Below, in pieces: positions 25,587-51,023 of a stretch of DNA of 64,000 nt (position 1 is its first letter; every line of letters starts with the position of its first letter). The stretch is from Candidatus Omnitrophota bacterium (GTDB lineage Bacteria > Omnitrophota > Gorgyraeia > Gygaellales > Profunditerraquicolaceae): assembly GCA_028716245.1 (NCBI GenBank), contig JAQUQW010000002.1:72947-136946 (forward strand), read 5' to 3'. Below the pieces are notes generated by a model that saw only the letters and a list, made by a program, of their open reading frames with translations, made no database searches and was not told where the DNA came from. The translations under genes were made by a program, and so were the position numbers.

Positions 25587-26927
25587 ATGAATAAATATAC
25601 TGTTGGCATAATTCTGGGTATTTTAGGCGCGGGGTTAAATTGCCAGGCGCAGGCGAATCAGGTCTTAGAGCAGGCGCCTTTTGTCCTGGAAGATAATTTA
25701 GCCGGCCCGGCCACGGTAGAACCAGAGCCGATCTTTGCCACAGGAATAATCAAAACTATCTGTGTATCTTATGAGTTTACCGGCCAGGTGAGTTTAGAAG
25801 CCAGCACCAATGGAGGCGTTGATTACACAAAAATAATCAATGGCTCACCGCTTGTTGATGGATTTATTCCGGGAAACCAGCTGCGCTTTAGGGCAAATAT
25901 CGGACCGGCAAGCAGTTTAAAAAAATTAACCATTGGTTACACTGATTCATCAGGAGTATCCAGATTATACCGCAACCCCGATTTAGCAAATTATAAAAAT
26001 CACCGTGAAATTTATATTTCCGGAGGCAGCCAGGAAGTATTTAATTATCCCCTGGAAATAAAATTGGATCCTTTAGCAGCCGGCACTGAAATTTATTTTA
26101 CCGCGGCTGACGGTCAAACTCCGCTTTATTATTATTTAGAAGATCCCGCGCGCTGCTACGTGAAGGTTCTCCAGATCCCCAAAGAAGGCACAAAAATTTA
26201 TGTTTACTGGAAAAATAGGGACAGCGACCGTTTTTCTCCAAGTGAAACAACCAAAAAACGGTCGCTGTCCCTATTTTTAGACGGCAATAAAGTTTTTCCG
26301 TTTTTTGAGGATTTTAACGATGCCTCTTTAAACGCGGAAAAATGGGAAATAATTCCCGGGCTAAAAAAAGAATACAGCATTAAAGATGGATATTTACGGA
26401 TTAAAGATTGTTTAGTGGTAACGCGAAATTTTAAAACCCAACAGGGCATCCTGGAGTTCAAAGCCAAGGCGGAAGAGAACGCGGGGATCCAGGTAGTTGT
26501 GCGCACAAAAGTTTCCGCGGGGTTATCTCCTTACGAACAAATAGTTTACTCTTCGAATTATCCGGGAGCAGAACATACTATCGCGATCAATAACATTGCC
26601 AAGGTGAATATAAGTAATCCGATAAAACCGCTTACCTATTATATCTATCAAGCAACCATCAATTCCACCGGCATTCTTTTTGAAAGATACAGTGAAGACC
26701 GGAAGGAAAAACAGGCCGAGATAAAATTTTTGGATGTGGGGAATTTTAGTGAAGGTTATATTGGTTTAAAAGCGGATGCCGCGCCGTTTAATGCCGGCAG
26801 TGTTTATTTCGATTGGATCAGGGTCAGGCCGTATGTGGAAGTTGAACCAAAGGCGGTGATAAATAGGGACAGCGACCGTTTTTCTCTTCTAGGCGACCAT
26901 GAACCTGTTGCTGAGGTGATGAGATGA
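25587..26927 (+). CDS. secreted DUF2341-like + LamG/concanavalin-like domain protein, carrying an in-frame REPIN insertion
   Basis: Signal peptide MNKYTVGIILGILGAGLNCQAQA preceded by an AGAGGA RBS (the ORF track start at 25521 is probably too far upstream). PLEIKLDP...YYYLED...YVYW resembles DUF2341. NDASLNAEKWEII...GYLRI resembles LamG-like. The ORF is uninterrupted through REPIN D. Confidence 0.6.
   Translation: MNKYTVGIILGILGAGLNCQAQANQVLEQAPFVLEDNLAGPATVEPEPIFATGIIKTICVSYEFTGQVSLEASTNGGVDYTKIINGSPLVDGFIPGNQLRFRANIGPASSLKKLTIGYTDSSGVSRLYRNPDLANYKNHREIYISGGSQEVFNYPLEIKLDPLAAGTEIYFTAADGQTPLYYYLEDPARCYVKVLQIPKEGTKIYVYWKNRDSDRFSPSETTKKRSLSLFLDGNKVFPFFEDFNDASLNAEKWEIIPGLKKEYSIKDGYLRIKDCLVVTRNFKTQQGILEFKAKAEENAGIQVVVRTKVSAGLSPYEQIVYSSNYPGAEHTIAINNIAKVNISNPIKPLTYYIYQATINSTGILFERYSEDRKEKQAEIKFLDVGNFSEGYIGLKADAAPFNAGSVYFDWIRVRPYVEVEPKAVINRDSDRFSLLGDHEPVAEVMR
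26214..26277. repeat. REPIN-like element D (family 1, CCG variant) embedded in frame in a coding sequence
   Basis: Translated without a stop as NRDSDRFSPSETTKKRSLSLF between the DUF2341-like and LamG-like parts of the host ORF. Confidence 0.85.
26860..26886. repeat. solo family-1 REP arm (left arm only) forming the 3' end of the DUF2341/LamG ORF
   Basis: AAATAGGGACAGCGACCGTTTTTCTC with no intact right arm. It is translated as INRDSDRFSL at the C-terminus. Confidence 0.75.
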
Positions 26928-26932
26928 AAGCG

Positions 26933-26968
26933 GCCCTATTTCCCGATTGGGTTGGAAACTGTTTCGGA
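26933..26968. repeat. family-2 repeat unit (CCCGATTGGG + GGAAACTGTTTCGG) immediately upstream of the giant gene
   Basis: GGCCCTATTTCCCGATTGGGTTGGAAACTGTTTCGGAGG. Its 3' end supplies the GGAGG ribosome-binding site 9 nt before the ATG at 26980. Confidence 0.7.
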
Positions 26969-26979
26969 GGAGTGGTTAG

Positions 26980-29900
26980 ATGAGTAATCGGCAGAAAGCA
27001 AAAATAGCTACGCGGGTAATCCTGGTGATGCTCTTTACAGCCGCCTTCGGGATGTTCTTGTCTTACCTATATCATCACTCCATCGAAGCGGTAGAGACAA
27101 ACTCTGTTGTCATAAGTAACCCTACCGCCACCACGGCAAATGCCAGCCAGAGGAAATTAGCGCGCGCCACCAACGGAGATTTATACGCGGTTTATGCCCG
27201 TCTTGACGGGGCAAACCAGCAGATTTATTATGCCAAGTCCACGGATAACGGCGCAACCTGGATAGAACAGGGCAAGGCCCACGCCGATGTAGCGGCTGAG
27301 CAGAAAGAACCGGCAATCGCCATCGATTCTTCGGATAATCTTTACATTGCCTGGGCCGGCAAGGGCTGGGGAACCAACACCGCTAATTTTAATATTAAAT
27401 ACCGTAAATATAATAAAGCAACCGCGTTATGGGATACACAGGAATCCGTGACCGACGCTGCGTATGACCAATTCGCGCCGGCGTTAGCTTTGGACTCAAG
27501 CAATAACATTCATGTTGCCTGGTATGGCAAAGGCTGGGGAACCAACACCGCCAACAATAATATTCAATATCGCAAAAGGACAACCTCCTGGCAAACACAG
27601 GAATCCGTGACCGACGCTGCGTATGACCAATTCGCGCCGGCGTTAGCTTTGGACTCAAGCAATAACATTCATGTTGCCTGGTATGGCAAGGGCTGGGGAA
27701 CCAACACCGCCAACAATAATATTCAATATCGCAAAAAGACAGCCTCCTGGCAAAAACAGGAATCCGTAACCGACGCTGCTTACGATCAACTTTCGCCATC
27801 GCTTGCCCTGGACTCAGCAGATTACGTTTACGCGGTTTGGGCCGGCAAAGGCTGGGGAACCAACACCACTATTGATAACATTGAATATTCAAAACGCGCC
27901 ACTCTCAGCACTGACTGGGCAGCCAACCGTGAGTCAGTTACTGACAGCGCAAGCGCGCAACTTTCGCCATCGCTTGCCCTGGACTCAGCAGATTACGTTT
28001 ACGCGGTTTGGGCAGGCAAAGGCTGGGGAACCAACACCGCCAACAATAATATTCAATATCGCAAAAGGACAACCGCCTGGCAGGGGCAATCAGGAATTAC
28101 GGATTTGGCGTCAGACCAAACCAATCCCACGCTTTTTTGGCATCCACAGCCAACCATATTCACCAGCGTAAAAACAAACATTATTACCTCAGGCCACAGT
28201 TTTATCTGGACTACCGGTTCAGGAGTTAAATTCTACGCCAGCGACGGAATTATCTTCCCTAAGGTTTATTTTGTTTTGAGCCCGGCGAATTCCACGCCTA
28301 CTGTCGGCTCAAGCACGGATGTAACGATTACCGCCGCCAAAAAAGACGCGGCTAACGCCGATGTTACCGTAACCGATTATAATGTGGCAACCACAGTAAG
28401 TGTAAGCGCCGACGGGGCGGCTAAATTTACCGCGCCGAGTTCCGGAAACCCGATTTCTCTTCGGGATATTGATTGGAAAAGCGGCGCAGCCAGCGTAACG
28501 ATTACCGATGATACCGCCCAAAGCGTTACCGTTAAGGCGGCAGACCAGAATAATGCTTCGATCACCGGAACAACCTCAGTTTCCTTCCAGCCGACAGCGG
28601 CAGATAAATTACTCCTTAATCACCCCGCGGCTATTGATGCCGGCACCCGCGCCGCGTATATAGTAACCCTGGCGGATGCCCGTAACAATAACGTAAATGC
28701 CGGCTCAGGCGGACAGGTAATTTATCTGTTTACAACTTCCGCAAGCGCCAACGCGAAATTTTACAACGCGGCCTCCGGCGGCAAGGCGATTACCAGCGTA
28801 ACTATTCCCAGCGGCAGTTCTCTGGCGAGCGCCTGGTATTACGACGATACTGCCGGCACTTATACCATAACCGCTTCAGATGCTTCCCCTGCAAACGGCG
28901 CAATTGGGCTGGCTGACGCGCAGGATACAATCAAAGTTAACCCCGCAGCCGACCTGAGCAAAAAATATAAGATTAAATTTGACAATGATGAAGCGGAAAT
29001 CGGCGATTTCCGGGCCAAGGACTTCAAACCTCACGTAAAAATGAAACGCTGGGGCGAAGAATGTTACTTTAGCATCGAGTTTCCCGAGAGCAAAATACCC
29101 GCCAAGGATAAATCCGTAGGCGTAGAGGCAGACAAGATAAAATGGAAGTCACCGGATTCAGAGGCGCATTTTTACAAGAAGGGGAGCAAGCAAATCAGCG
29201 CCAAGGATAATAAAGGAAAAAGCCGCGGCTTTTTGAAGAATGAATCCGGCGCTTTGGAGTTTGAAGTGGTTTTGGATAAGAAACCGGCCTCCAATATAAT
29301 CAGCTTACCCATAGAAACCAAGGGCCTTAAATTCTATTATCAGGGGCCGTTAACTGCCGAAGAAATAAAGCAGGGAATAGTCCGGCCGGATGAGGTGGTG
29401 GGGTCTTACGCGGTGTATCATGAAAGTAAAAATGACGGCGCATATAACACCGGCAAGGCCTTCCATATTTACCGGCCAAAGGTCATCGATGCCACGGGGA
29501 ATACGATTTGGGGCCAGCTGGACATCGACGCAGTAAAAGGCGCCTTAACCATCACTATTGACCAGTCCTGGCTAAATAGCGCGGCTTATCCGGTAACCAT
29601 TGACCCTGAATTTGGTTATATGTCGATAGGTTCAAGCTCTATCCCTTTGAACAATATAACCCGCGGTTCAAAATTTACCGCCCTCGTAATGACGCCGGCT
29701 ACAATCGGAGCTTATTTGGGAAATACCGATGCCACTGCTTCTCACACCGCCAAGTTCGCTATTTATAAGGCGAGCGATTCATCCCTTGCAGGCCAGACCC
29801 AGGAAGTAACTATTCCCGCCTCATCTACAGGCTGGTATACGGGCGTCTATATTGTTGGCCCAAGCTTAACCGCCGTAGATTACGCCTTAGTGGCCAAAGC

Positions 29901-38900: not shown

Positions 38901-41900
38901 CACAGTGAACGTGGTTTTCTCCGGAGCCAATTCTTCTCCTTCGGCTAGCGCTCCTACCTGCACGAATAACCTGGCAGCAGATACCGCTTTTGGCACAAGC
39001 ACGGCGCTTAATTTTGTAAACGGTGTGGCAACTACTACCTTTAAGGCGTATAAAGCGGAAGTCACGCATATCAAGGCTACTGCCGGCGCAGCGACTACTT
39101 CGGATATCAATGCTTTAAATATCACGGTTAAACATGGGGCAGCCAACCACCTGAAATTCAGCGCGGCATTTACCGAGCCGCAGGGCGGTTTTCAGGCAGG
39201 CGTGGGATTTACTTTAAGCGTGTTGAACGGGGTAGATTTATACGACAATATCTGTGACGGAGCAAATGGCGCGACTGCTTACAGCGGGACAAAGGCAATT
39301 ACCTATGCTTTGAGCGGGACAGCCAATGCGCCGGATGGTTCTGCCCAGGATACCTATACTAACAGCGTTGTATTCAATGCCGGCCTTTCCACTTCAACTT
39401 TAAATACCACTTTGTATCGTGCGCAGACTACCAGTATCACTGCCAGCGATGCGCTTCTAACCGGCATAAACGCCGCTTCAGGTTCAATCATGGTTAATCC
39501 CAAGCCGGTTTCCAAGCTTTTCTTTACGCAGCAGCCTTCGACCGCTTCATTGACAAACGTGGCGCTGACGCAGCAGCCGATAGTTTCCGTAGCGGATATG
39601 TATGGTAATGCCGTAACCTCGGCCGTCGACCAGGTCACCCTGAAGGCTTCCACTACCACCGGCATTTATACCGCGGCAACCAATGGCACTCTTTCCGGCA
39701 CAGCCCTATCGGTAAATCTTGTCAACGGCAAGGCAGTGTTTAGCGGCATAAAATATAGCTACCCTGAAACCATATACCTTAAAGCCTCGGCTGCCAATGC
39801 CGCTGTGGTGGATATATATTCTTTTGGCATCGCCTTTGGCACGGCTACCGACGGGACTCTTACTGCCGGGCCGTTAGTCGAGCCGGCAGAGATATCTTCT
39901 ACGGTCGATTCCGATGGTGCAAGGGTAAATATTTTTGATTTTAAAGTCAGCGATGCCGGCACGGACGGTTATGGCATACCGATAAAACAAATCAGGATTA
40001 ACCGCAATACACTGGCGGATACAACCGGCGGCTGGTCAACTTATATTGCCGGAGCCAAGATTTCCGACGGCACCACCACTCTCTTAGGTACGATTACGGA
40101 TAATGTCCTGACTTTTGGCGCCGGCACCAGCACGATTTACACGGTTGCCGACGCAGGTAATAAGACATTTACCTTAAGCATCTACCTGAAACAAAGCCTG
40201 CCTGTGGGCGCGGACGGAAAGTTCCTCGGCTTCAGTATTAACCCGAATACCGATATAACCGTGGATGCAGTAGGTTCCCAGTTTACCACCGCCACCGCCT
40301 TGACCAGTTCTACTAAGGTGCAGGTAACCATAACCAAATTTATGGTTAGCGCAAGCGCAAGCAGTATGCTGGCGGGTAATGGGATTGCCATCAACATTAA
40401 GGGCACGGACATCAACGGTAACATCGATACCGATTACATCGGAGACAAAGAGATAATCTTTAGCGGGGCAAGCGTTGCTTCAACCGGCACAAACCCTACC
40501 TGTACTAACTATTCCGCAGTAGGCATAAATTTTGGCGGCATAACCCTGGTAAGCTTTGCTGCAGGCCAGAGTTCCTCTACCATAACAATGAAACTATACA
40601 AAGCGGAGACCGCTGTCATTAAAGCCACTACCTCTGATTCTTTGTTTACTACTTCCGCCGCCGATGCTTTGAATATTACGGTTACCGGCGGCGTTGCAAG
40701 CAAGCTTTCCTGGAATACTCAGCCGGTGGCTACAGTAGCAGCTAATGCCCCGTGGTCTGCGTTTAAAGTGAGCGTAGTTGATGCTTATGGAAATACTGCT
40801 TCCAGCGCAATTAATGTAACGGTTGCCCCTACCGGAGGCACTTTGAGTGCGGCAGCAACTGCTCAAGTTGCAGCGGTATCCGGCATAGCGACCTTCGATA
40901 ATTTTGCGGTGTATTGCGCAGCTTATCCGGGGACAGTTACCTTAAATGCTACTGCTGCTGGAGTTACCGCCAGCGGCGCATCTAATAATGTAACCGTAGG
41001 AGAAAAATATGCGATTACAATGAAAGCATTTGATTCGGTAAACGGCAGCCCATTGACCGAAGTCACGCTTAAGATTATCGATTCAAACACCGGCCTACTG
41101 GTTTCCGGCCTTACTAACCCGATAATCGGTAATAGCCCGTTTTCGTTTAATCTGCCTTACGGAAAATATAGTTTTAATTTTAATAAAACCGCCTACGTAG
41201 AGAGCACGGTTAATAAGACTGCGGATGTTCCTGCGGATGCGGTTGACGGCGCCTACGACAATAATATCAGCTGGACGGTGTTTCTGATGTCCACTGCTGA
41301 ATCTCTGGCGGATTACCGGGTATTAAGTAACTTTGTCTATGATGAAACTAATGACCGGATAACCGGCTTGGTGCGGCTGGAGAAAAGAGGTAAGCAGATT
41401 ACCAGCGATGCCATAAATACCCTAAGAACCAGCGCTTTAAATATCTTCGATAGTTCCGACGCGGTTAACCCTAAATATACCGCTTCATTGGCTACCTCCG
41501 ATGCAAACGGCAATTATTATTTTAATATTGATAATGCCGTAGCAGCAAAGGGTTTTGTCAAGGGCAGGGATTATTTTGCCAAGATGACTATTCTCTACGG
41601 CGGAGTTGATTTATCAACGAATGTAACGTATTCGGCGGCTAATGATTTTACGATCTCGGTAATGTCAACTTTAAATACCCTAGCCAACCAGATTGTGGCC
41701 TCGGTTGCATCCGAAGGGGCTCTTACCAGATCACAACTGACCTCGACAATAGAATCTACGGCCGCGGCTACTCAGGCACAGGTTGCCCAGGTAAGTACTC
41801 AGGCAGCGCAGATCTTAACCGCTACAGGCACTACCATACCTGCGCAGATCACTACAGCACAAACAGCGGTAACCGATACCATTGCTACCAAGGTTGAGCC

Positions 41901-42603
41901 GCATGTTGAGTCCGGTATCCTTACCCGTCAAAATACGGTCAAACAGGGCGGAACAGCCACTATCCGTTATCGCGCCGCCGGCAGCGGGCTTGCGCCGGTC
42001 TTAAACGTTTATAACCCTAAGGATGTTTTGCTTCTTGCGAATAAGCCGATGAAAGAAATAGGTGCGACCGGTGTTTATGAATATGACCTGACTTTCCCGA
42101 TTTCCTGGGGCACGGGTGATTTCTCGGTAATCTGTTCTGAATCCACCAAAGGCACGGCAGACGCCTTGGTCATGACCGTTACCCAGTACGATATAGAAAC
42201 CGTCTCCAATAATGTTGCGGCTGTGTTGGGTAATACCGGAGGATTAACTAACTTAAAGGACGTTACTGCTACATTAAGCAGCCAATTTGATAGTATGGAT
42301 AAAATACTGGCCCAGATCAGCAAAGATGTTGCCGGTAAGCTCGGAGAAGCCAAGGGCGCGGTCAATGACCTGGCCGTTGCCTTTAAACAGCTGGAGGACA
42401 TGAGCAAGCAGATTAAGAATATCGGCGGGACAAAAGGCATCAATTTGGAAAAACTTTATGAAGTTTCCAAGGATAAGAAAGCGGACCTCGAGTATTTGAA
42501 GAATAAGAGCGAAGAATTAAAGGCGACCATGGAATTGAATCAGAAGATGCTGGAAAATGCCGGCAAGAAACCGGTAGTGCAGACCTGGTTTGAATTTAAG
42601 TAA
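26980..42603 (+). CDS. giant (5,207 aa) cell-surface protein with signal anchor, BNR/beta-propeller repeats, Gly-rich beta-helix-like regions, FN3-like and many Ig-like domains, and a C-terminal coiled coil
   Basis: Single uninterrupted 15,624-nt ORF with a GGAGG RBS. It has an N-terminal TM anchor and an Asp-box (STDNGATW) with 53-aa propeller-blade repeats. Long Gly/Ala-rich stretches resemble parallel beta-helix/GLUG-like repeats. Dozens of ~100-aa Ig-like (Big-type) units carry recurring TITLTATDA / VTAKD motifs. Confidence 0.85.
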   Translation: MSNRQKAKIATRVILVMLFTAAFGMFLSYLYHHSIEAVETNSVVISNPTATTANASQRKLARATNGDLYAVYARLDGANQQIYYAKSTDNGATWIEQGKAHADVAAEQKEPAIAIDSSDNLYIAWAGKGWGTNTANFNIKYRKYNKATALWDTQESVTDAAYDQFAPALALDSSNNIHVAWYGKGWGTNTANNNIQYRKRTTSWQTQESVTDAAYDQFAPALALDSSNNIHVAWYGKGWGTNTANNNIQYRKKTASWQKQESVTDAAYDQLSPSLALDSADYVYAVWAGKGWGTNTTIDNIEYSKRATLSTDWAANRESVTDSASAQLSPSLALDSADYVYAVWAGKGWGTNTANNNIQYRKRTTAWQGQSGITDLASDQTNPTLFWHPQPTIFTSVKTNIITSGHSFIWTTGSGVKFYASDGIIFPKVYFVLSPANSTPTVGSSTDVTITAAKKDAANADVTVTDYNVATTVSVSADGAAKFTAPSSGNPISLRDIDWKSGAASVTITDDTAQSVTVKAADQNNASITGTTSVSFQPTAADKLLLNHPAAIDAGTRAAYIVTLADARNNNVNAGSGGQVIYLFTTSASANAKFYNAASGGKAITSVTIPSGSSLASAWYYDDTAGTYTITASDASPANGAIGLADAQDTIKVNPAADLSKKYKIKFDNDEAEIGDFRAKDFKPHVKMKRWGEECYFSIEFPESKIPAKDKSVGVEADKIKWKSPDSEAHFYKKGSKQISAKDNKGKSRGFLKNESGALEFEVVLDKKPASNIISLPIETKGLKFYYQGPLTAEEIKQGIVRPDEVVGSYAVYHESKNDGAYNTGKAFHIYRPKVIDATGNTIWGQLDIDAVKGALTITIDQSWLNSAAYPVTIDPEFGYMSIGSSSIPLNNITRGSKFTALVMTPATIGAYLGNTDATASHTAKFAIYKASDSSLAGQTQEVTIPASSTGWYTGVYIVGPSLTAVDYALVAKASTADIMMYFDSGTANQGVSQASVYSDAWPPTASFTSDNYKYSIYDPADITPPTLSNLILYGNVSGSSAYVNGTAQDNQMAKAKVTLSDDTSITLDIQFSEDGSTWGIYNGVANGAGSNSTTGGSTWTAGTYVTVPGITTTPTATNINVNASGAYAATGNGVWKFTTDGAKTLYVRIRDASGNVTSGYVTLPADDLTGATSLTSANCGTLSGGVWNATTSKCDWTPVNGATISGNYSNVGVFTVTSGYTVNLTAGTPLKVHGVTANIAGNLNGDYAGYTGGAGGLKTNWPTGATGGYGGINGGGIGGTANSSPNSSGGGGGGGGYGTAAGSGGSGDAAGGAAGGAGGPILASSTLNGIDINMGAGAGGGGGGGGGDTLLGINGYQGNSGGGAVYLYASTTATVSGTISMNGGAGGAGGAGGGSTDGCYSNRAGNGGGGGGGGAGGGILINGNAVTVSGTLRTNGGAGGAGGAGGDVGCSTGGAGGNLGGSGRIKVFGGSYTITNATFSATGYNTTYNCTSTNSICNSGTIYTQNLPVLASITLDSTAPAGGSITYADGKTSSTSTTITLVDGTDALSGISSKILQRASATYTNDSVGVYSSFSMLATNPVSPYTDSTITAGNAYKYQYVVTDAAGNSAVYASASVVKVFGAINNYLVSATTPQAGGIGWSETVTAKDISGNIVTTAANTATMSSSSANVKFYTNNTYTTQTTTYTLSSGAVTIYVQDTPAVPETITLTATDAALKTGTSGNITVNYPSPAPVAPPAGYTTKYAQPMFVWNAPSGYTVQQYALSIDGGADITGITNTYYRYTGVNLSNAAHTWQVKAQIGGLWTSYCATVNFTVNTASTANDITVSTAVTWDGTKIYDDVTITGTGSITHSANTATKTNWLNLISMGSVMINSGGFIDVSGKGYSGGNGPGPGVTWLGYPTGGGAHGGNGGASASAGGVAYDNVLIPADMGSSGGSDNISNSNGPAGGGFIKLNVSGTLTNNGSIIANGNNGVIQTSVYGTGAGAGGGMYLLTGTLAGSGAFAANGGNGYVGTGYVGGGGGGGRIAAYYTTYSYTGSATATGGTGANAGGTGTIYGLIDHYVFTVTSPQSAGTGFTATVTAKDVNNTTIPSGANITLTTTGSAKFYTDNTYITEKIPATYTLVSGVSPTIYIKDNVVQNIILTATGNGISTASSAITVNPGNLDHFTITSYPTSTTAGDNFGANNVVVTAYDAVNNVKTNYTGSVYFTSTDAQAVLPYTSASKYTFIGGDNGTHTFAGTGFTLKTTPSETITVTDGTISQVSSAITVNPAATLGSFTIAGFPATTTAGVPFASPANDVVVTAKDTYNNVKTNYTGSVYFTSTDAQAVLPYTSASKYTFIGGDNGTHTFAGTGFTLKTTPSETITVTDGTISQVSSAITVNPAAIASYVISATSPQTAGVGWSGSVTAKDAFGNTVTTDPGTVVTLSSASSAKFYASLTNANSDTGGSATLSYTLSSGVIPIYVRDNKVEAIALTATDALTKTGTSSAISINVAPANKIVFTSAAQTLVAGTVSTAYTVQVQDQYGNLRTSDALALTLGSNSTTGAFDTSAAGAFNGTVTSITTVNGIGTFYYKDTVTGSPAITVAYTGLTSGTQTQTITAGAITPTITSASYKAGATPNTTVAFTAANPIPIGGKIKVTFDQDYDLSGVLGVVSGNTGATVTVSDQTLIINVGTAISAGSPVSIVVSGIKNPLILGITGTYAVKTYTVADVLIDQGTAAVNTIVAPIITLLTPSAAGITLGDTQSYPITWSYDGAISNNLSLYYANEGGLVYPATPNIASAVTNSGTYTWVVPDDPRLATKVKIEDIFYQIMKDTTDTQFNAGTQSNTVVSGTGNAAGVVLLPGSAPYSSSGIYTSRSLDTGTGGAQSFGKLEWTANVPAQCGANAVKFQVAANNDNATWNFVGPDGTAATYFTVSGTSISSTLNGLRYIKYKAYLATADINYTPTLQEVKVGFASPTSANRVISSESANTFVMAGRTSVYYLSAPADIVAGTTAQYTLTRKDSNGTLVTVGNEAATLASTSTGANKQFRATAGGAALSPSQITIPDGSSAVTFYYYDEKMGTYSITASRTGVTSATDSINVLHAAADHLRFQSNITTPQKAGASFMLPLLEAVDQYGNILTGDYGATAYAGTKTISYSLSGLANAPNGTPNDSWTTSVPFTNGTSNVATNLITTLYRAQTTSIIPNDPLLPALTANVASNAIVVNPELAVTLKFTQQPSATSLINVALAVQPKVNIQDTYGNQTHDTTAVTLYDSTLNTSYLDGTGTISAVANPVSAVDGLVSFSGVKYSGFPTSASSTIYLYAQAAGLAPAYSTAITFNVASTSTVSAVTVPVANFNLIPTNDTQAKKFAVLKFRVNDTGDDGIPTLIDGIKVDIGGTGLNASTDIAWAELYDDTAAASVSSVTGAAITNTQILFGAAANNDSLAGLTSIASGTSRNYTVYIYMKPSKLTAVEGNTYTFNINETGVYADLGYSSKMAGNSAAVTPVIGTIQVDTSHIEVVSDTGASSLSLTAGVGANIILRATDANKNIDSNYTGNHTFVFSGLNPVTTYNPMVDATNFGVNKTIGFTNGVSTTALLKAYKKETGTVSVTESGQSYLCHTLSANVAAASVSKISIASGNSQTTAINTALLQPYVAFISDLYGNPVSAVSATFGIASVPSGATGQLLSVVPASSDVNGQISTILTTGNLAGTYVVSATSVGLTGSPLSFTSNVLAPTAMSKISGDNPLGKKVTEILAPFVIQVVDATSTPIPNVTVNFAITSTPSGATGALSAAQAVTDNNGQASTILTLGNKTGTYTVTASYLSYTQTFTVTANPQPPYKVVLSGPSSVNAGDASTVFTLNIQDQYSNASPVSANTVFNLTNSPSTTGGFYSDSGATISLGTQITVAGAASSNTFYYKDTVTGAPVITAARFSGDTLTTVSASVPLSVVPAGLSYFKVSAADTSVMTTGGSRAITVTAYDLQNNIKTDVSTVNVVFSGANSSPSASAPTCTNNLAADTAFGTSTALNFVNGVATTTFKAYKAEVTHIKATAGAATTSDINALNITVKHGAANHLKFSAAFTEPQGGFQAGVGFTLSVLNGVDLYDNICDGANGATAYSGTKAITYALSGTANAPDGSAQDTYTNSVVFNAGLSTSTLNTTLYRAQTTSITASDALLTGINAASGSIMVNPKPVSKLFFTQQPSTASLTNVALTQQPIVSVADMYGNAVTSAVDQVTLKASTTTGIYTAATNGTLSGTALSVNLVNGKAVFSGIKYSYPETIYLKASAANAAVVDIYSFGIAFGTATDGTLTAGPLVEPAEISSTVDSDGARVNIFDFKVSDAGTDGYGIPIKQIRINRNTLADTTGGWSTYIAGAKISDGTTTLLGTITDNVLTFGAGTSTIYTVADAGNKTFTLSIYLKQSLPVGADGKFLGFSINPNTDITVDAVGSQFTTATALTSSTKVQVTITKFMVSASASSMLAGNGIAINIKGTDINGNIDTDYIGDKEIIFSGASVASTGTNPTCTNYSAVGINFGGITLVSFAAGQSSSTITMKLYKAETAVIKATTSDSLFTTSAADALNITVTGGVASKLSWNTQPVATVAANAPWSAFKVSVVDAYGNTASSAINVTVAPTGGTLSAAATAQVAAVSGIATFDNFAVYCAAYPGTVTLNATAAGVTASGASNNVTVGEKYAITMKAFDSVNGSPLTEVTLKIIDSNTGLLVSGLTNPIIGNSPFSFNLPYGKYSFNFNKTAYVESTVNKTADVPADAVDGAYDNNISWTVFLMSTAESLADYRVLSNFVYDETNDRITGLVRLEKRGKQITSDAINTLRTSALNIFDSSDAVNPKYTASLATSDANGNYYFNIDNAVAAKGFVKGRDYFAKMTILYGGVDLSTNVTYSAANDFTISVMSTLNTLANQIVASVASEGALTRSQLTSTIESTAAATQAQVAQVSTQAAQILTATGTTIPAQITTAQTAVTDTIATKVEPHVESGILTRQNTVKQGGTATIRYRAAGSGLAPVLNVYNPKDVLLLANKPMKEIGATGVYEYDLTFPISWGTGDFSVICSESTKGTADALVMTVTQYDIETVSNNVAAVLGNTGGLTNLKDVTATLSSQFDSMDKILAQISKDVAGKLGEAKGAVNDLAVAFKQLEDMSKQIKNIGGTKGINLEKLYEVSKDKKADLEYLKNKSEELKATMELNQKMLENAGKKPVVQTWFEFK
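27439..28086 (+). repeat. intragenic tandem repeat array (159-174-nt units encoding propeller-blade repeats), copies 1 and 2 near-identical
   Basis: CAGGAATCCGTGACCGACGCTGCGTATGACCAATTCGCGCCG... recurs at 27439, 27598 and 27757 with a 159-nt period. Copies 3 and 4 share a further near-identical ~78-nt segment (27788-27866 vs 27959-28037). Confidence 0.9.
30847..30870 (+). repeat. (GGT)8 triplet microsatellite encoding poly-Gly inside the giant gene
   Basis: Perfect GGT x8 run. Similar runs occur at 31201-31221 (GGT x7), 31291-31320 (GGCGGCGCC units) and 33037-33054 (GGC x6). Confidence 0.9.
33571..34130 (+). repeat. 333-nt tandem duplication of an Ig-like domain unit with a 227-nt block that is 100% identical
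   Basis: 33571-33797 is identical to 33904-34130. The encoded peptide VKTNYTGSVYFTSTDAQAVLPYTSASKYTFIGGDNGTHTFAGTGFTLKTTPSETITVTDGTISQVSSAITVNPA occurs twice. Confidence 0.9.
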
Positions 42604-42610
42604 GGACAGG

Positions 42611-42680
42611 AATAAAGGGACCGTTTCTATTTTTTAATAATAGAAACGAAGAAAAAAATAGAAGCGGTCCCTTTATTTTA
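42611..42680. repeat. family-3 long inverted repeat immediately after the giant-gene stop
   Basis: AATAAAGGGACCGTTTCTATTTTTT at 42611-42636, a 19-nt spacer, then AAAAAAATAGAAGCGGTCCCTTTATTTT. The spacer contains a partial extra arm copy (ATAGAAACG). Confidence 0.8.
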
Positions 42681-42735
42681 GAAACTTATTGAATATAGAA
42701 AGTTTCCTTGGTAAAATAAGCCTTGGAGGATTATT

Positions 42736-43422
42736 ATGAAAATTGGGAAGCTTGCTTTCCTATTTTTTGTTTTGGGCCTGTTATTATGCCAACCCGCGCA
42801 GGCAGGGATCTCAATGCGCCTTATGGCGTTAAATCCCGCGGATTCGGTACAGACGGTTACGATTAAAGCTTATCTTCCCCTGGAGGTAAAACCCGAGGAT
42901 GTAATTTATAAAGACGATCTGGAGGTTATTTACGATACTCAACAGGGCAGTTATTATGTTTACGGAGAATATGAGCTTAAGCCCAAAGAGGTCCTGGAAA
43001 AAGAAATAGAGTTAAGGGATATCTGGGTAATCGATGCTTCCCAGATAGCGATGATCCGCCAGGAGGCCAAAGAGATCCTGGAAGGTTTTAAGAAAACAGA
43101 TTCCATGGAGCGGGCAACGGTTCTTTACAATGGCATAGATAAGAAATTAAAAGATGTGGAACAGATGCAAGCCATCGCATCTGCCAGCCCGGGCTACAAG
43201 ATATCGAATTACCGCAATAGCATGACTCTTTTAAATTCCGCAAAAGCCGACCTGCTGGCGGCAAAGACGCTGTTAGCCGAAGTTACGCCCAAGGGAATGG
43301 CCAAGCTTACCTGGAAGATTATTTTATTTATCATTATATTTCTGGGTATTTTGGCCGCCGGGTTCTTTTTTGTCTGGCAGCGCCAGAGCAAACTGGAAGC
43401 GGAACAAAAACCCCCCGAATAA
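42736..43422 (+). CDS. exported protein with C-terminal membrane anchor (hypothetical)
   Basis: Signal peptide (LLCQPAQAGIS), a soluble domain and a C-terminal TM segment (LTWKIILFIIIFLGILAAGFFFVW). No recognisable catalytic motif. Confidence 0.5.
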   Translation: MKIGKLAFLFFVLGLLLCQPAQAGISMRLMALNPADSVQTVTIKAYLPLEVKPEDVIYKDDLEVIYDTQQGSYYVYGEYELKPKEVLEKEIELRDIWVIDASQIAMIRQEAKEILEGFKKTDSMERATVLYNGIDKKLKDVEQMQAIASASPGYKISNYRNSMTLLNSAKADLLAAKTLLAEVTPKGMAKLTWKIILFIIIFLGILAAGFFFVWQRQSKLEAEQKPPE

Positions 43423-43435
43423 ATATCATGAGAAT

Positions 43436-43551
43436 AAATAGGGACAGCGACCATTTTTCCCATTCTTTCCGTCATTCCCGCGTAAGTGGGAATCTGATCC
43501 CCGCTTTTGCGGATATGACAATTTTGAAAAAATGGTCGCTGTCCCTATTTA
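43436..43551. repeat. REPIN-like element F (family 1) with an extended 65-nt spacer containing two additional small hairpins
   Basis: Left arm at 43436-43460 and right arm at 43526-43550. The spacer has ATTCCCGCGTAAGTGGGAAT and CCGCTTTTGCGG hairpins. The right arm encodes residues KKWSLSLFI of the downstream signal peptide. Confidence 0.8.
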
Positions 43552-44297
43552 TTTTGTTTTTTATCCCAGCCTGTGCCTGGGCTGAAGTGAGCACTTCGCT
43601 TTGGCAGACCAAAAAATCCCAGCATTTTATTATTTATTATCAGGAAAGCGCCGATGATTTTGTCAATGAGCTGGATGTTTCAGCGGAAAATTATTATAAC
43701 AGCATCGTCGAAGAATTAGGTTTCCGCCGGATGGATTTCTGGAGCTGGGATGACCGGGCAAAGATATATTTATTCAATAACAGCGCCGATTATTTAAATG
43801 AGACCGGCGGCTTGGCCTGGAGCGGGGCGCAGGTTTCGGTAAAGCTACGCACGATCAAGACCTTTATCGGCCAGGAGACTTTTTTCGATTCTATACTTCC
43901 GCATGAGCTGACGCATATAATCTTCCGGGAATTTATCGGTACCAAAACAGAGCTGCCGCTTTGGCTGGATGAAGGTATCGCCTGTTCTCAGGAAAAAAGC
44001 AGCCTGATTTCGCGGATGGATTCAGCCAGGGCGCTGGTTAAGCAGGATACATATTTAAAATTTGATAAACTCTTCCAGATATATAACTCCACGCTTATCG
44101 TGCCGAATGTATTTTATTCCGAGTCCGCATCGATTATCGTTTTTTTGCTAAAAAAATATGACCGGGAATTATTTTTGGATTTCAGCCGGAAGCTTCGCGA
44201 CGGCATGCAGTGGAAAAACGCCCTTTTAAACACGTATCATTTTTCAAATTTTGAAGAAATGGAATCTGCCTGGAAGGATTTTATGTTGAATAAATAG
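43515..44297 (+). CDS. secreted putative zinc metallopeptidase (HExxH ... E)
   Basis: Signal peptide MTILKKWSLSLFILFFIPACAWA. HELTH plus a downstream LDEGIA is consistent with a gluzincin-like fold, but family assignment is uncertain. The stop TAG at 44295-44297 lies inside the REP arm. The ORF track start at 43428 would include the whole of REPIN F. Confidence 0.5.
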   Translation: MTILKKWSLSLFILFFIPACAWAEVSTSLWQTKKSQHFIIYYQESADDFVNELDVSAENYYNSIVEELGFRRMDFWSWDDRAKIYLFNNSADYLNETGGLAWSGAQVSVKLRTIKTFIGQETFFDSILPHELTHIIFREFIGTKTELPLWLDEGIACSQEKSSLISRMDSARALVKQDTYLKFDKLFQIYNSTLIVPNVFYSESASIIVFLLKKYDRELFLDFSRKLRDGMQWKNALLNTYHFSNFEEMESAWKDFMLNK

Positions 44298-44412: not shown

Positions 44413-45084
44413 ATGCCTAGAATTGCCAGAGTTGTAGCGATAGGTCAACCTCACCACATTACACAAAGAGGTAACTATCGGCAAGACGTATTCCTTAACG
44501 CGGATAACCGAAAACAATACCTTGCCTGGATTAATGAATATAGCGTAAAATACGGGGTTCTCGTTTTGGCCCATTGCCTGATGGCAAATCATGTTCACTT
44601 TATCGCTATTCCTAATGAAAGCGATTCGCTGGCTAAAACATTCAATACCGCTCATATGCGTTATTCCCAGTATTTTAATAAAAAGTTGAAGCAGAGCGGG
44701 CATCTTTGGCAGGGACGTTTTTATTCTTGTGTGTTGGATCAATCTCATCTTATACTTGCCGCTCGTTATATTGAAAGGAATCCTGTGCGCGCAGGACGCG
44801 TAGAGAAACCTTGGCAGTGGCCATGGTCAAGCGCCGCCGCCCATACGAATAGGAAGGATAATAAATCGATTGAGTTTGGGGATCTTCTCGGGATTATCGG
44901 CATGTCAAGCACCGCGTGGGAAAAATACATTGATTCCGCGGAAGAGGACAATTTTTTACAGGATATAAGAAAGCATACGTATGCCGGTCGTCCCCTCGGG
45001 GCGCCGGAATTTACTATAGGTTTAGAGGAAAAATGTGGTAGAAGGTTATGCGCGTTACCGATAGGGAGGCCAAGAAAAAGCTAG
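44413..45084 (+). CDS. REP-associated tyrosine transposase (RAYT; IS200-like Y1 HUH transposase), copy 1
   Basis: 223 aa with HUH motif (ANHVHFIAI) and a conserved C-terminal Tyr-helix region (YIERNPVRAGRV). Inverted family-1 REP arms lie 97 nt upstream and directly after the stop. Confidence 0.85.
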   Translation: MPRIARVVAIGQPHHITQRGNYRQDVFLNADNRKQYLAWINEYSVKYGVLVLAHCLMANHVHFIAIPNESDSLAKTFNTAHMRYSQYFNKKLKQSGHLWQGRFYSCVLDQSHLILAARYIERNPVRAGRVEKPWQWPWSSAAAHTNRKDNKSIEFGDLLGIIGMSSTAWEKYIDSAEEDNFLQDIRKHTYAGRPLGAPEFTIGLEEKCGRRLCALPIGRPRKS

Positions 45085-46233: not shown

Positions 46234-46235
46234 AT

Positions 46236-46299
46236 AAATAGGGACAGCGACCATTTTTTCTTGGTCGTTTAGATAAAAAATGGTCGCTGTCCCTATTTA
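46236..46299. repeat. REPIN-like element H (family 1) between epsilon and c subunit genes
   Basis: Arms are at 46236-46260 and 46275-46299. The spacer contains the inner mini-hairpin CGACCA...TGGTCG. Confidence 0.85.
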
Positions 46300-46307
46300 A
46301 TTAACCT

Positions 46308-46520: not shown

Positions 46521-46532
46521 GGCCAATATATA

Positions 46533-47246: not shown

Positions 47247-47250
47247 AAAA

Positions 47251-48768: not shown

Positions 48769-48780
48769 ATTTATTATTAA

Positions 48781-51021: not shown

Positions 51022-51023
51022 AT

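Follow-up and report, generated by a model that had tools for sequence, protein, structure and literature searches.

A 5,207-residue putative envelope fibre of an Omnitrophota bacterium and its genetic coupling to a small membrane protein

The 64,000-nt stretch of Omnitrophota DNA that was analysed (the window) encodes a 5,207-aa protein, the giant, which belongs to a large, previously undescribed and unnamed Omnitrophota family of envelope fibres of 3,000-5,700 residues. Judged by gene order, the tail of the giant is genetically coupled to p228, the 228-aa product of the following gene, the two being adjacent almost everywhere and fused in frame in many lineages. The giant is best read, with reasonable though not high confidence, as a Sec-exported envelope fibre of ~5,200 residues that is tethered at its C-terminus via p228 and carries a variable distal binding head. 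In addition, we infer adhesion, processing by a peptidase and export via secretins. The giant gene and the parts of its product are located in the window as follows:

26980-42603, plus strand: giant gene, ATG start, 5,207 aa (by inference MDD5477349.1)
26980-27099, plus strand: N-terminal export signal or anchor, aa 1-40 (basic n-region, ~20-aa hydrophobic core, then SIEA/VE)
27112-28179, plus strand: beta-propeller-like module, aa ~45-400 (one Asp-box, five W-x-G-K-G-W-G blade repeats)
28258-28950, plus strand: two Ig-like repeats, aa 427-657, ending the part common to the 794-/847-aa proteins of relatives
28945-30048, plus strand: domain X, aa 656-1023, phage-virion-like, all-beta with two lobes
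30685-31419, plus strand: Gly-rich module 1, aa 1236-1480 (40% Gly; defined by composition only)
32617-33129, plus strand: Gly-rich module 2, aa 1880-2050 (31% Gly)
33145-41007, plus strand: stalk, aa 2056-4676 (~105-aa Ig-like repeats, Big_1-like domains, ~570-aa super-repeat)
41008-42600, plus strand: conserved C-terminal basal module, aa 4677-5207 (family matches, AlphaFold2 model)

The giant gene is real and under purifying selection. As the preliminary description had stated, a single ORF takes up 24.4% of the window (15,624 of 64,000 bases, none of them N); GGAGG is found 9 nt 5′ of the ATG, and an ORF of this length is beyond chance. The sibling MAG GCA_028715785.1, an independent assembly, encodes an ortholog (P0069) that is colinear with aa 3229-5207 of the giant, 79% identical over 1,991 aa and free of stops, and dN/dS between giant and sibling was 0.255 for the last 1,229 codons, compared with 0.07-0.12 for neighbouring genes. 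The giant ORF is therefore neither a chimera nor a pseudogene, a worry that the preliminary description had raised. DNA repeats within the gene are short: blade units of 159 nt are 60-91% identical, and one 266-nt pair (33532-34133) is 95% identical. Repeat collapse could at most have changed how often one domain of ~110 aa occurs. Misassembly (a chimera or repeat collapse) or a decaying pseudogene, in favour of which the metagenomic source, the internal repeats and a GC shift (0.49-0.51 in the gene, 0.43-0.46 in the flanks) can be cited, has a negligible probability given the sibling ortholog, 16 further loci in which ORFs of at least 3,000 aa end in the same C-terminal module, and the fact that repeats make up <10% of the gene and are mostly diverged.

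For the family search, the C-terminal 568 aa of the giant were used as the query against 1.84 billion representatives. Matches comprised at least 303 clusters (50% identity) at E ≤ 1e-3 and 133 at E ≤ 1e-30, and every named match was from 'Candidatus Omnitrophica/Omnitrophota'. Among the best 150 representatives, 45 were 3,500-5,743 aa long, with the module at or beside the C-terminus. That this is a genuine giant protein of envelope or surface type, from an Omnitrophota bacterium, is supported. By these matches, the last ~530 aa are the family-defining module, in which AlphaFold2 predicts two beta-sandwiches followed by a 77-aa helix, an Ig-like sandwich and a tail that is helical and ends in KPVVQTWFEFK (family consensus ...KPVxQTWFEF), consistent with the coiled-coil tail described earlier. 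Identity to the sibling is 93% over the last 85 aa and 20-50% over aa 4816-5044, which precede the tail. This strongest divergence between giant and sibling lies inside the C-terminal module, which is unexpected for a purely structural base.

From aa ~2990 onward, the giant is colinear with 16 other family proteins at 37-58% identity. The stalk contains a super-repeat of ~570 aa (aa 3081-3670 resemble aa 4047-4621), and the ~105-aa repeat family is present in ~17-19 copies; Big_1 scored just below the cut-off (34.2 versus 34.9 bits). An Ig-like array had been reported before and was found, with roughly two dozen domains (the ~105-aa repeats plus Big_1) in place of dozens. Searches of Pfam, NCBIfam, PHROGs and PDB sequences were essentially blank and identified in the giant no domain for which ligand binding or catalysis has been demonstrated, which counts against the reading as a fibre with a binding head.

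Two features lie directly beyond the giant gene:

42609-42679, plus strand: hairpin with a 27-bp stem just past the giant's stop codon (-35.2 kcal/mol, z -9.3)
42736-43422, plus strand: p228 (MDD5477350.1), 228 aa, with signal peptide, ~75-aa conserved domain, coiled coil, C-terminal membrane helix and short basic tail

p228 had no match in Pfam, NCBIfam or PHROG and is 93% identical to its sibling counterpart (dN/dS 0.118). The preliminary description had listed it as a small exported protein; the signal-peptide-like N-terminus agrees with this, but the C-terminal membrane helix makes it a bitopic membrane protein. A p228 homolog follows the giant in all five looked-up loci (L007, L008, where it is duplicated, L009, L092 and L093), and in 58 of 60 informative metagenome loci the gene just before p228 encodes the giant's tail. 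Where 10 kb of upstream flank was available, the ORF before p228 stayed open for at least 3,000 aa to the locus start in 16 of 18 cases. Moreover, p228 is fused in frame to the tail in five metagenome loci (L158, L160, L170, L172 and L173) and in 13 of 150 family representatives, including the 4,564-aa P0136; in these fusions, ...KPITKSWLEPGS runs straight into mature p228, with its membrane helix and basic tail. By this measure, p228 is the most tightly linked partner of the giant. Because p228 is both adjacent and fused to the C-terminus, the coiled-coil tail is most likely a membrane-tethered base, not a free end. The support for pairing of the tail with p228 is genetic, consisting of adjacency and fusion. 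The strong hairpin between the two genes counts against the tether reading; this stretch has no counterpart in the sibling, in which the spacer between giant and p228 is ~50 nt.

At the other end, N-termini vary across the family, and the N-terminal third of the giant is a lineage-specific mosaic of propeller, phage-virion-like beta-sandwich and Gly-rich modules. N-terminal modules are exchanged among family members, phage structural proteins and DUF2341/LamG proteins. What had been called an Asp-box propeller contains one canonical Asp-box (STDNGATW at aa 87) and five blade repeats of 53-57 aa, and in its homologs this part is assigned to Pfam SBBP, BNR_4 or BNR_2. The homolog of aa 1-657 is a separate protein of 794 or 847 aa in L001 and L002. 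In L001, a close relative with the same synteny of histidine kinase, response regulator and DUF2341 gene, it is a stand-alone 794-aa protein, and giant size is thus not ancestral for the N-terminal part. Domain X is a module of phage structural proteins, with a fold resembling capsid-decoration, tail-spike and baseplate proteins as well as carbohydrate-binding sandwiches; another giant, P0165, starts with domain X directly after its signal anchor. Both Gly-rich stretches noted earlier are present by composition. Module 1 had no Pfam match and no homolog among the fetched family members, and segments like module 2 occur 2-3 times in giants P0085, P0093, P0099 and P0141.

The orientation of the fibre could also be the reverse, with the N-terminal helix holding the protein and the C-terminal coiled coil as its free distal end; in a variant, both ends would be held (the N-terminus by its own helix, the C-terminus via p228), giving a loop or envelope-spanning strap. 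We regard this as unlikely, but as the alternative that survives best. It draws on the N-terminal segment, aa ~9-32, which is the sole strongly hydrophobic stretch of the giant (Kyte-Doolittle) and is conserved in P0001 and P0002, both of which keep the 'IEA', and on the divergence from the sibling, which is highest near the C-terminus, as expected of an exposed tip. The ~20-aa core, with SIEA/VE after it, is long for a cleaved signal peptide and may remain in the membrane, in which case both ends would be anchored. However, the tail is fused to a membrane-helix domain in many relatives, the family keeps its C-terminus and varies its N-terminus, and in most members the same position is taken by a canonical AxA signal peptide, which is cleavable and not an anchor. 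Of the N-terminal membrane anchor in the preliminary description, the hydrophobic segment stands, while a role as an anchor is less likely, given the signal peptides of most family members.

The neighbouring genes that bear on function are:

18816-22524, plus strand: tandem pair of secretin genes, with a TPR tail on the second (context)
22572-24562, plus strand: histidine kinase (HisKA_3) and LuxR/GerE response regulator (context)
25587-26927, plus strand: DUF2341 protein, 446 aa, MDD5477348.1, 'DUF2341 domain-containing protein' at NCBI (Pfam PF10102, E 2e-9; signal-peptide-like N-terminus)
43428-44297, plus strand: Peptidase_MA_2 protein (Pfam PF13485, E 7e-12; HELTH motif; signal-peptide-like N-terminus)
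46009-58241, plus strand: F-type ATPase operon, then type II secretion-like genes (context)

These flanks match the earlier account of a DUF2341 gene upstream, exported and HExxH proteins downstream, and type II secretion loci on both sides, and the comparison of synteny it had proposed linked DUF2341, p228 and the peptidase to the giant across relatives. The DUF2341 gene of the window contains an in-frame REP element (26213-26276). A counterpart is found immediately 5′ of the L001 propeller gene (65% identity) and, at 32% identity, immediately 5′ of the L092 giant, and DUF2341 and Laminin_G_3 are fused within giant P0131 and the propeller homologs P0003, P0007, P0008 and P0025. Peptidase_MA_2, whose start codon is uncertain because of a REP pair at 43441-43545, is next after p228 in L007, L093 and 38 of 52 metagenome loci. 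The kinase/regulator pair is 5′ of DUF2341 in L001 too (82% and 91% identity); the response regulator was found in L092, and L008 has a different pair. Secretin and TPR genes are also upstream of the giants in L008 and L093. The ATPase genes are ordered epsilon, c, b/delta fusion, alpha, gamma, beta, and the cluster lacks a gene for the a subunit; the type II secretion-like genes (50997-58241) encode E, F, PilM/N, M-like, G, pseudopilin, J and K. In L007, L008 and L093, the giant is likewise preceded by secretin(s)/TPR and followed, in this order, by p228, (peptidase), ATPase and type II secretion E/F. In the metagenome loci, the cassette leads into the ATPase b/delta gene in 30 of 33 cases.

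This conserved synteny, with secretins upstream and E/F/G/J/K homologs downstream, together with the export signal at the N-terminus of the giant and the published proposal invoking type II secretion for Omnitrophota giants, would also fit a soluble exoprotein released by the flanking system, such as a scaffold that binds or degrades polysaccharide, with p228 as a pilotin- or chaperone-like export factor. We consider this improbable, since a tail fused to the p228 membrane helix, as in many lineages, would not be released without cleavage, and searches of the giant showed no domain of a glycoside hydrolase, lyase or peptidase. Similarly improbable is that the giant, p228, the atypical F-type ATPase and type IV filament genes form one machine for attachment or motility, driven by the ATPase, with the giant as its surface 'leg' or strap. 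The ATPase operon directly after the cassette, its unusual gene order and the lack of an a subunit nearby would be in keeping with such a machine, and Seymour et al. (2023, PMC10066038) group such Omnitrophota ATPases with Mycoplasma type 2/3 ATPases and place them near type IV pilus genes; a parallel is offered by the gliding legs of Mycoplasma mobile, which an F1-like ATPase drives, namely Gli521, with a membrane segment at its C-terminus, and Gli349, with 18 repeats of ~100 aa (PMC7052211). But the likeness to the Gli proteins is by description; an ATPase that keeps c, b/delta and the c-ring carboxylate could be no more than the ATP synthase of the cell; the linkage to a housekeeping operon may have historical reasons; and the cytoplasmic tail of p228 offers only ~15 aa for coupling to a motor.

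In the favoured reading, a fibre tethered via p228, the giant would be exported by Sec via its N-terminal signal, its C-terminal tail would dock on the periplasmic part of p228 or pair with it as a coiled coil, and the membrane helix of p228 would tie the base to the cytoplasmic membrane. Roughly two dozen Ig-like domains would form a stalk of the order of 100 nm. Since the conserved tail is paired with or fused to p228, the variable head probably points away from the cell, where its target might be a carbohydrate or surface ligand, either on particles or on another cell. The DUF2341 protein could work with the propeller head, the secreted Peptidase_MA_2 could mature or release the fibre, the secretins and type II secretion-like machinery could provide passage over the outer membrane, the two-component system and a GGDEF regulator could control the fibre, and the whole would sit inside a 'symbiotic ATPase / type IV filament' locus. 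An inner-membrane-tethered fibre of a diderm must cross the outer membrane, which speaks against this model, and we know of no type II secretion system that exports a membrane-tethered substrate of such size.

Giant proteins of Omnitrophota have been described as Archaeovorin-type and Dockerin-type (West-Roberts et al. 2023, bioRxiv 10.1101/2023.11.21.568195), and long proteins have been catalogued (Nielsen & Lui 2026, bioRxiv 10.64898/2026.06.07.730766). The giant resembles the two types in phylum, association with the envelope, general absence of Pfam annotation, adjacency to secretin, GspE and GspF-type genes, and a proposed role in cell-cell contact. That it is one of these proteins, with a function in degradation of prey cell walls, is very unlikely, although the organism and the nearby type II secretion-like genes agree. 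At 5,207 aa it is 6 to 28 times shorter and below the study thresholds (>30,000 aa, ≥10,000 aa, ORFs >20 kb), it has one N-terminal hydrophobic segment compared with tens of membrane helices, it lacks SecA_DEAD, C39, S8, dockerin, TSP3 and enzyme domains, and it is followed by p228 and Peptidase_MA_2 in place of PilZ genes. Size, helices and domains thus contradict membership in the published class, and the preliminary description, which likened the giant to genes reported from Omnitrophota-like nanobacteria, is corrected on this point. In gene arrangement, the locus is like the 'symbiotic' F-type ATPase/type-4a pilus loci of Seymour et al. (PMC10066038), in which an ATPase operon is <10 kb from type IV filament genes; in the passages on these loci, 'giant' denotes ORFs over 20 kb only, and a 3,000-5,700-aa fibre gene, p228 and Peptidase_MA_2 are not described as parts.

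Domain X was compared with phage virion surface proteins, namely cyanophage A4 capsid protein 9jwb_Z, Bxb1 tail spike gp29 and the phi812 baseplate DUF4815 protein, but here it is a single domain within a chromosomally encoded protein of 5,207 aa, whose locus is conserved together with housekeeping genes, and no other phage genes were found near the giant. The type I-secreted giant repeat adhesins of Gram-negative bacteria, such as SiiE, LapA and MpIBP (PMC6272769), share with the giant a length of thousands of residues, a long array of Ig-like beta-sandwiches and, in the favoured reading, one end held by the cell with the other binding ligand. In contrast, the giant has an N-terminal Sec-type signal and no RTX repeats or C-terminal type I secretion signal, no ABC/MFP/TolC genes are present in the window, and the giant is proposed to be tethered by a C-terminal membrane-helix protein, separate or fused, rather than by an N-terminal plug lodged in a channel of the outer membrane. 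Gli349 (3,183 aa) and Gli521 (4,727 aa) are on the surface of the very small host-associated bacterium Mycoplasma mobile (PMC7052211). By description, features in common with the giant would be repeats of ~100 aa, one membrane segment at an end of the protein (the C-terminus in Gli521), a binding 'foot' at the distal end and a functional tie to an F1-like ATPase. Mycoplasma, however, lacks an outer membrane, its Gli genes are not beside ATPase genes, and the ATPase here retains c and b/delta.

The giant gene was recovered by ORF scan at window positions 26980..42603 (+) as 5,207 uninterrupted codons with an ATG start and a GGAGG motif 9 nt 5′ of the ATG. Its 15.6 kb occupy 24.4% of the window, in agreement with the single 5,207-aa ORF and 24% of the preliminary description, which had also raised the worry of a collapsed repeat or an assembly chimera. 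The contig of a sibling MAG (GCA_028715785.1) starts within an ortholog, whose product (P0069, 1,991 aa) was colinear with giant aa 3229–5207 at 79% identity, contained no stops and was followed by the same gene order as in the window. Internal DNA repeats were few: the propeller blade units were 60–91% identical, and one 266-nt pair (33532–34133) was 95% identical. dN/dS against the sibling, calculated by the Nei-Gojobori method over the last 1,229 codons, was 0.255, compared to 0.07–0.12 for the ATPase, type II secretion and GGDEF neighbors and 0.27 for the peptidase. Because the sibling ortholog is intact, the DNA repeats are few and dN/dS is 0.255, the gene was taken as real and a chimera or pseudogene was ruled out; what is left of the original worry is a possible copy-number error in one ~110-aa repeat. 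The giant is under purifying selection, yet it is evolving several times faster than its neighbors.

Its last 85 aa were 93% identical to the sibling, as was p228, the 228-aa product of the next gene. A local divergence hotspot was found in the ~230 aa before the tail, at aa ~4816–5044 (window 41425–42067), where identity fell to 20–50% with indels within an Ala/Thr/Gln-rich helix; it is flanked by the 93% identical tail and by a 90–100% identical stalk segment (aa 3977–4216). Diversifying selection, or a spacer under little constraint, may lie behind it. Across window positions 26001–42000, GC of the giant was 0.49–0.51 versus 0.43–0.46 in the flanks, and GC skew was negative, reversed relative to the rest of the window. 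This shift is probably a codon-composition effect of Gly/Ala/Thr-rich sequence; a foreign origin of parts of the gene is a possible alternative. Promoter and terminator scans around the giant gave nothing above shuffled expectation. Directly 3′ of its stop codon, a perfect 27-bp-stem hairpin (42609–42679; −35.2 kcal/mol, z −9.3) was present; the sibling, whose intergenic spacer is shorter, lacks it. Candidate identities for the hairpin are a terminator, an mRNA-stabilizing element and another mobile palindrome.

The layout of the protein was pieced together by comparing it with itself, by iterative profile searches and from two predicted structures.

Layout of the giant protein (amino acid positions)
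1–40, export signal/anchor segment: basic n-region, ~20-aa hydrophobic core, SIEA|VE; sole strong hydrophobic segment
~45–400, propeller-like part: one Asp-box and five 53–57-aa W-x-G-K-G-W-G blades; homologs with SBBP, BNR_4 or BNR_2
427–657, two Ig-like repeats (profile search)
656–1023, domain X
1236–1480 (40% Gly) and 1880–2050 (31% Gly), Gly-rich modules (composition)
~2056–4676, stalk: ~105-aa Ig-like repeats, Big_1-like domains, ~570-aa super-repeat
4677–5207, C-tail module (AlphaFold2)

The N-terminal Asp-box propeller described earlier corresponds to the propeller-like part. The ~105-aa Ig-like repeat family was present in 17–19 copies across the whole giant when jackhmmer was run against the family set, and in only two near-identical copies when it was run against the giant alone; the Ig-like array stands, and the "dozens" of Ig-like domains claimed for it come down to 17–19 copies of one family plus the Big_1-like domains. 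In the super-repeat of the stalk, aa 3081–3670 are similar to aa 4047–4621. Apart from the N-terminal segment, a hydropathy scan (Kyte-Doolittle, 19-aa window, threshold 1.6) picked up just two windows, both marginal, at aa 2670 and aa 2724. Pfam searches with the giant as halves and as ten 570-aa tiles (up to E = 1) returned noise and a sub-threshold Big_1 match (34.2 bits versus a 34.9 cut-off) in two stretches at aa ~3610–3818. NCBIfam and PHROGs had no match for parts of the giant, p228 or the DUF2341 protein encoded upstream, and sequence searches of the PDB had none for the giant. The AlphaFold2 model of the C-tail module (38-sequence alignment, mean pLDDT 78) comprises a pair of beta-sandwiches, a helix of 77 residues, an Ig-like sandwich modeled with very high confidence and a tail that is helical, so that the protein ends in a helix as modeled; a Foldseek search of the PDB with this model retrieved nothing more specific than macroglobulin, pilin and Ig sandwiches of a generic type.

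A HMMER scan of 1.84 billion representative proteins with giant aa 4640–5207 as the query matched 303 clusters at E ≤ 1e-3, of which 133 also passed E ≤ 1e-30. The match reaches the C-terminus, or ends 200–265 aa before it, in nearly all family clusters, and the consensus end is ...KPVxQTWFEF. All named matches are "hypothetical protein", mostly "partial", from Candidatus Omnitrophica/Omnitrophota. Among the best 150 representatives, 45 are 3,500–5,743 aa long, and 16 proteins form a subfamily that is colinear with the giant over the last ~2,200 aa (37–58% identity). N-termini across the family are unrelated to each other except for the signal peptide, which in most has a classical AxA cleavage site; in many members a "FVQTDWSGG" domain follows the signal peptide in place of the propeller.

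The genes around the giant carry PHG87_ locus tags and are arranged as follows.

Genes flanking the giant (window positions)
Far upstream, in order: ExeA-like AAA_22 ATPase, unknown gene, two tandem secretins (18816–22524), the second with a TPR tail
Between the secretins and the DUF2341 gene: HisKA_3 kinase, LuxR/GerE response regulator, MNT/HepT toxin-antitoxin pair
25587–26927: DUF2341 protein (MDD5477348.1; Pfam PF10102, E 2e-9; signal-peptide-like N-terminus)
42736–43422: p228, 228-aa protein (MDD5477350.1)
43428–44297: Peptidase_MA_2 protein with a HELTH motif
Far downstream, in order: REP-associated transposase-like gene, response regulator-GGDEF gene, F-type ATPase operon
46009–51021: F-type ATPase operon in the order epsilon, c, b/delta fusion, alpha, gamma, beta
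50997–58241, after the ATPase: GspE-, GspF-, PilM/N-, GspM-, GspG-, GspJ- and GspK-like genes

The immediate flanks are those of the preliminary description (DUF2341 upstream, exported and HExxH proteins downstream). The parts of p228 are, in order, a signal peptide (...PAQA|G), a conserved ~75-aa domain with the pattern NPS...LKAYLP-EVKPEDV...YD...DIW, a coiled coil, a C-terminal hydrophobic helix and a basic tail. This pattern predicts a membrane protein whose N-terminal part lies outside the cytoplasm; because a signal peptide is present, the ~75-aa domain is not expected to be cytoplasmic. Pfam (E ≤ 1) gave no PilZ and no other match to p228 save noise on the membrane helix, and a PilZ identity was rejected since the domain also appears to be exported. 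A lipoprotein was rejected as well, as Leu precedes the Cys and the Cys is not conserved in one homolog (L093).

A p228 homolog was encoded 3′ of the giant in all five other loci compared (L007, 93% identity; L009, 76%; L093, 41%; L092, 32%; and L008, where it is a tandem duplication within one 454-aa protein). An alignment of five sequences, with the L008 halves left out as too divergent, was used to scan JGI metagenomes and yielded 80 loci. Sixty of these loci had 750 nt or more of upstream sequence, and 58 of the 60 encoded the tail of the giant (aa 4970–5207) immediately before p228 and in the same orientation. Where the upstream flank reached the full 10 kb (18 loci), the ORF preceding p228 ran without a stop back to the edge of the locus, over 3,000 aa or more, in 16. 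Downstream, Peptidase_MA_2 was the gene after p228 in 38/52 metagenome loci, and the ATPase b/delta gene (30/33) and an RR-GGDEF gene (17/33) were found beyond. The earlier claim that flanking genes are linked to the giant therefore holds in relatives. In five loci (L158, L160, L170, L172 and L173) tail and p228 are fused in-frame with no stop and no signal peptide between them: the tail "...NDKPITKSWLEPGS" runs into "ILMNAVVVNPS...", followed by the membrane helix and basic tail. Thirteen of the 150 best family representatives, including proteins of 4,564 and 3,147 aa, are fused in this way too, with p228 joined on from about its residue 28. On this genomic evidence p228 is a near-obligate neighbor of the tail of the giant and is repeatedly fused to it, and the fusions point to a specific candidate protein-protein interface between the two.

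Secretion-like genes (type II/IV) lie beside the giant on both sides, as had been described: the secretins upstream, and the E, F, M/N, G, J and K homologs downstream. The ATPase operon is wedged between the fiber cassette and the GspE/F genes, with a GspE/PilB-like gene beginning at 50997, which places an F-type ATPase <10 kb from type IV pilus-type genes. Its gene order is unusual and the cluster contains no a-subunit gene; the c subunit retains the helix-2 Glu, and the same arrangement was found in L007, L008 and L093. Secretin(s)/TPR, giant, p228, peptidase, ATPase and type II secretion-like E/F form a conserved locus frame in these three loci and in metagenome loci.

Several observations concern repeats and mobile elements at this locus. 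Over a stretch of 300 nt (19771–20070 versus 21326–21625) the two secretin paralogs are 73% identical, and the TPR tail of the second is encoded by separate genes in L008 and L093. A REP-like palindrome with arms GGGACAGCGACCRTTT occurs at 21 sites in 16781–58366 (0 expected by chance), mostly as inverted pairs ~38 nt apart. One arm lies on each side of an IS200/Y1_Tnp-like gene (44413–45084), which scored 70.7 bits against the NCBIfam model "REP-associated tyrosine transposase" (cut-off 80) and has no counterpart at this position in the sibling; elements and gene look like a REP/RAYT system. REP elements also lie in-frame within annotated CDS (26213–26276, 26866–26881, 43441–43545 and 20339–20395), translated as ...NRDSDRFS... 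or ...KKRSLSLF.... In the DUF2341 protein one is in a loop and one at the C-terminus; at the 5′ end of the peptidase ORF the element encodes part of the signal-peptide n-region, and the second secretin ORF has another at its start. The DUF2341 ortholog in L001, a relative's locus, carries other insertions in the same two loops. The regulator-DUF2341 spacer (window 24555–25359; L092 752–1838) is a hotspot for small mobile cassettes, MNT/HepT in the window and PhdYeFM-like plus HicA/HicB-like in L092; a 23S_rRNA_IVP/bAvd-like gene (L001 1685–2071) lies one gene earlier, between kinase and regulator.

The N-terminal part of the giant was compared with a fairly close relative in JGI sample 3300009538, whose kinase, regulator and DUF2341 protein are 82%, 91% and 65% identical to those of the window. 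The order HK, RR, DUF2341 is kept and is followed by a complete 794-aa protein, which is 64% identical to giant aa 1–657 and continues with ~140 aa of unrelated sequence; an 847-aa version is encoded on a second contig from this sample. In another giant (P0165, GCA_043808115.1), a signal anchor leads directly into a homolog of aa 656–1023 at 56% identity, a reading that depends on a start codon set 55 codons upstream. The separate 794-aa protein and the P0165 N-terminus together suggest that a propeller-Ig protein was joined to the front of a P0165-type giant, and the giant looks like such a fusion from its alignments. A scan of GTDB genomes with the N-terminal alignment gave only distant propellers (Zixibacteria, an archaeon and Dehalococcoidia), and no synteny was obtained among these species representatives. 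Four proteins (P0003, P0007, P0008 and P0025) carry the propeller in fusion with DUF2341 or Laminin_G_3, and one giant (P0131) contains three internal DUF2341/Laminin_G_3 pairs, which ties the upstream DUF2341 gene to the fiber head.

Domain X (window 28945–30048) has >763 homologs, mostly standalone proteins of 370–650 aa without a Pfam domain. In IMG/VR, 183 stretches encode a relative, and on one contig (L028) its gene comes after portal, protease and major-head genes, with a run of small genes behind it; a direct viral homolog was matched in BFVD (E 1e-33). A prophage origin of the giant was rejected since, phage-like as domain X is, the locus is chromosomal and syntenic between genomes. 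The head of the giant is variable and exchangeable, with phage-virion-like and lectin-type modules, which suggests a possible route for target specificity to evolve. Domain X lacks Pfam and PHROG annotation, and the confident structure model made of it (m2b0ea527a233) is, with the genomic contexts, a first handle on a very abundant unannotated phage protein family. In one locus (L010) it lies among very large unknown genes and a DUF2341 gene. A contig with a 2,650-aa giant homolog opens inside a reverse-transcriptase gene directly upstream of the homolog (L009 1–999), and the fragment has DGR-like motifs (IGLPIGNLTSQ, YMDDF). A diversity-generating retroelement, suggested by this fragment and by the 23S_rRNA_IVP/Avd-like genes of L001, was rejected, as there was no template/variable repeat pair in L009 or the window and the annotated window ORFs include no reverse transcriptase; with no such pair on the L009 contig, its target, if any, would be off-contig.

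With moderate confidence, we read the giant as a tethered fiber with a variable distal head and a base held via p228. The tail would bind the exported part of p228, whose helix would tether the fiber base in the cytoplasmic membrane; the secretins would give passage through the outer membrane, the Ig-like array would form a stalk on the order of 100 nm, and the N-terminal head would be distal and bind a surface ligand. The DUF2341 protein may work together with the propeller, and the Peptidase_MA_2 protein may mature or release the fiber. The topology is in this way made testable (C-terminus tethered, N-terminal head variable). Of the earlier reading as a giant adhesin or fiber, the gene and its flanks were confirmed and adhesion and export route stay putative; likewise, the linkage of DUF2341, p228 and peptidase to the giant stood, and their accessory or attachment roles are candidate ones. 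The main rival, unlikely in our judgment, keeps the N-terminal segment as an anchor, with the N-terminus alone or both ends held; the single strong hydrophobic segment of the giant would suit it, and the AxA sites of most family members and the tail-p228 fusions would not. Release of the giant as a type II secretion exoprotein, to which the secretion-like genes on both sides lend themselves, is improbable. A surface element of an ATPase-driven machine, for which the place of the operon in the locus frame speaks, is given equally little credence.

Omnitrophota are ultra-small, uncultured and probably host-dependent, and attention has so far been on ORFs >10,000 aa. We propose that the C-tail fibers with p228 are a distinct and common Omnitrophota class of 3,000–5,700 aa, new here, which sits beneath the size thresholds of published surveys and has the C-tail module plus p228 as its sequence signature. 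The published Omnitrophota giants (West-Roberts 2023) exceed 30,000 aa (gene >90 kb) and have numerous transmembrane regions, PilZ homolog(s) immediately downstream and an adjacent type II/IV secretion-like cluster; their Archaeovorin/Dockerin types have a SecA_DEAD or SecA preprotein-binding domain, a C39/S8 peptidase near the N-terminus, and enzyme domains or dockerin plus TSP3 repeats. Other surveys used thresholds of at least 10,000 aa and ORFs >20 kb (PMC10066038). At 5,207 aa and 15.6 kb the giant is below the thresholds of all three surveys. In contrast to the published giants it has one strong hydrophobic segment by hydropathy scan instead of tens of membrane helices, none of the SecA_DEAD, SecA preprotein-binding, C39, S8, enzyme, dockerin or TSP3 domains in the Pfam searches of halves and tiles (E up to 1), and p228, with no PilZ match, as its downstream gene. 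Nearby secretion-like genes are the sole shared criterion, and the giant is not of the kind already reported in Omnitrophota, as the preliminary description had it. In the searched passages of the Nielsen & Lui 2026 catalogue, no mention was found of tail anchoring or Ig-like fibers.

The locus matches in arrangement the "symbiotic F-type ATPase / type-4a pilus loci" described by Seymour et al. (PMC10066038), with an ATPase <10 kb from type IV pilus-type genes. For those loci, attachment to and motility on host cells were proposed by analogy with Mycoplasma type 2/3 ATPases, and the passages searched yielded no mention of the fiber-p228-peptidase cassette, which would be a fixed component of a locus already suspected in host contact.

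The likeness to the type I-secreted SiiE/LapA is that of a giant Ig-repeat adhesin in functional style; unlike these, the giant has no RTX/HemolysinCabind match, and there are no ABC transporter, MFP or TolC genes among the annotated window ORFs. Set beside invasin/intimin-type proteins, which have Big_1 domains above the Pfam threshold and an outer-membrane beta-barrel at the N-terminus, the giant scores just short of the Big_1 cut-off, has no detected barrel domain and starts with a propeller. The giant family is a giant repeat fiber/adhesin set apart by a putative C-terminal anchoring system that is distinct and had no name before, by a mosaic head related to phage proteins and by its fixed position in a locus for which a role in host contact was already suspected; what had been a vague "giant surface protein" becomes a defined family whose specific interface and topology can be tested, not categorically new.

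Two proteins of Mycoplasma mobile (PMC7052211) resemble the giant by analogy only: Gli349, which is 3,183 aa long and has repeats of ~100 aa, and Gli521, whose 4,727 aa include a membrane segment at one end. By that analogy, it is conceivable at long odds that giant, p228, Peptidase_MA_2, atypical F-type ATPase, flanking secretins and type IV filament genes form one conserved apparatus of ultra-small Omnitrophota, in which the ~100-nm fiber, held in the membrane by p228 and displayed through the envelope, would be moved, retracted or tensioned by the ATPase or the pilus motor to grip and pull host cells. If true, such an apparatus would be the diderm equivalent of the M. mobile gliding machine of Gli349/Gli521 legs and F1-ATPase, and its heads would come from the phage receptor-binding repertoire.
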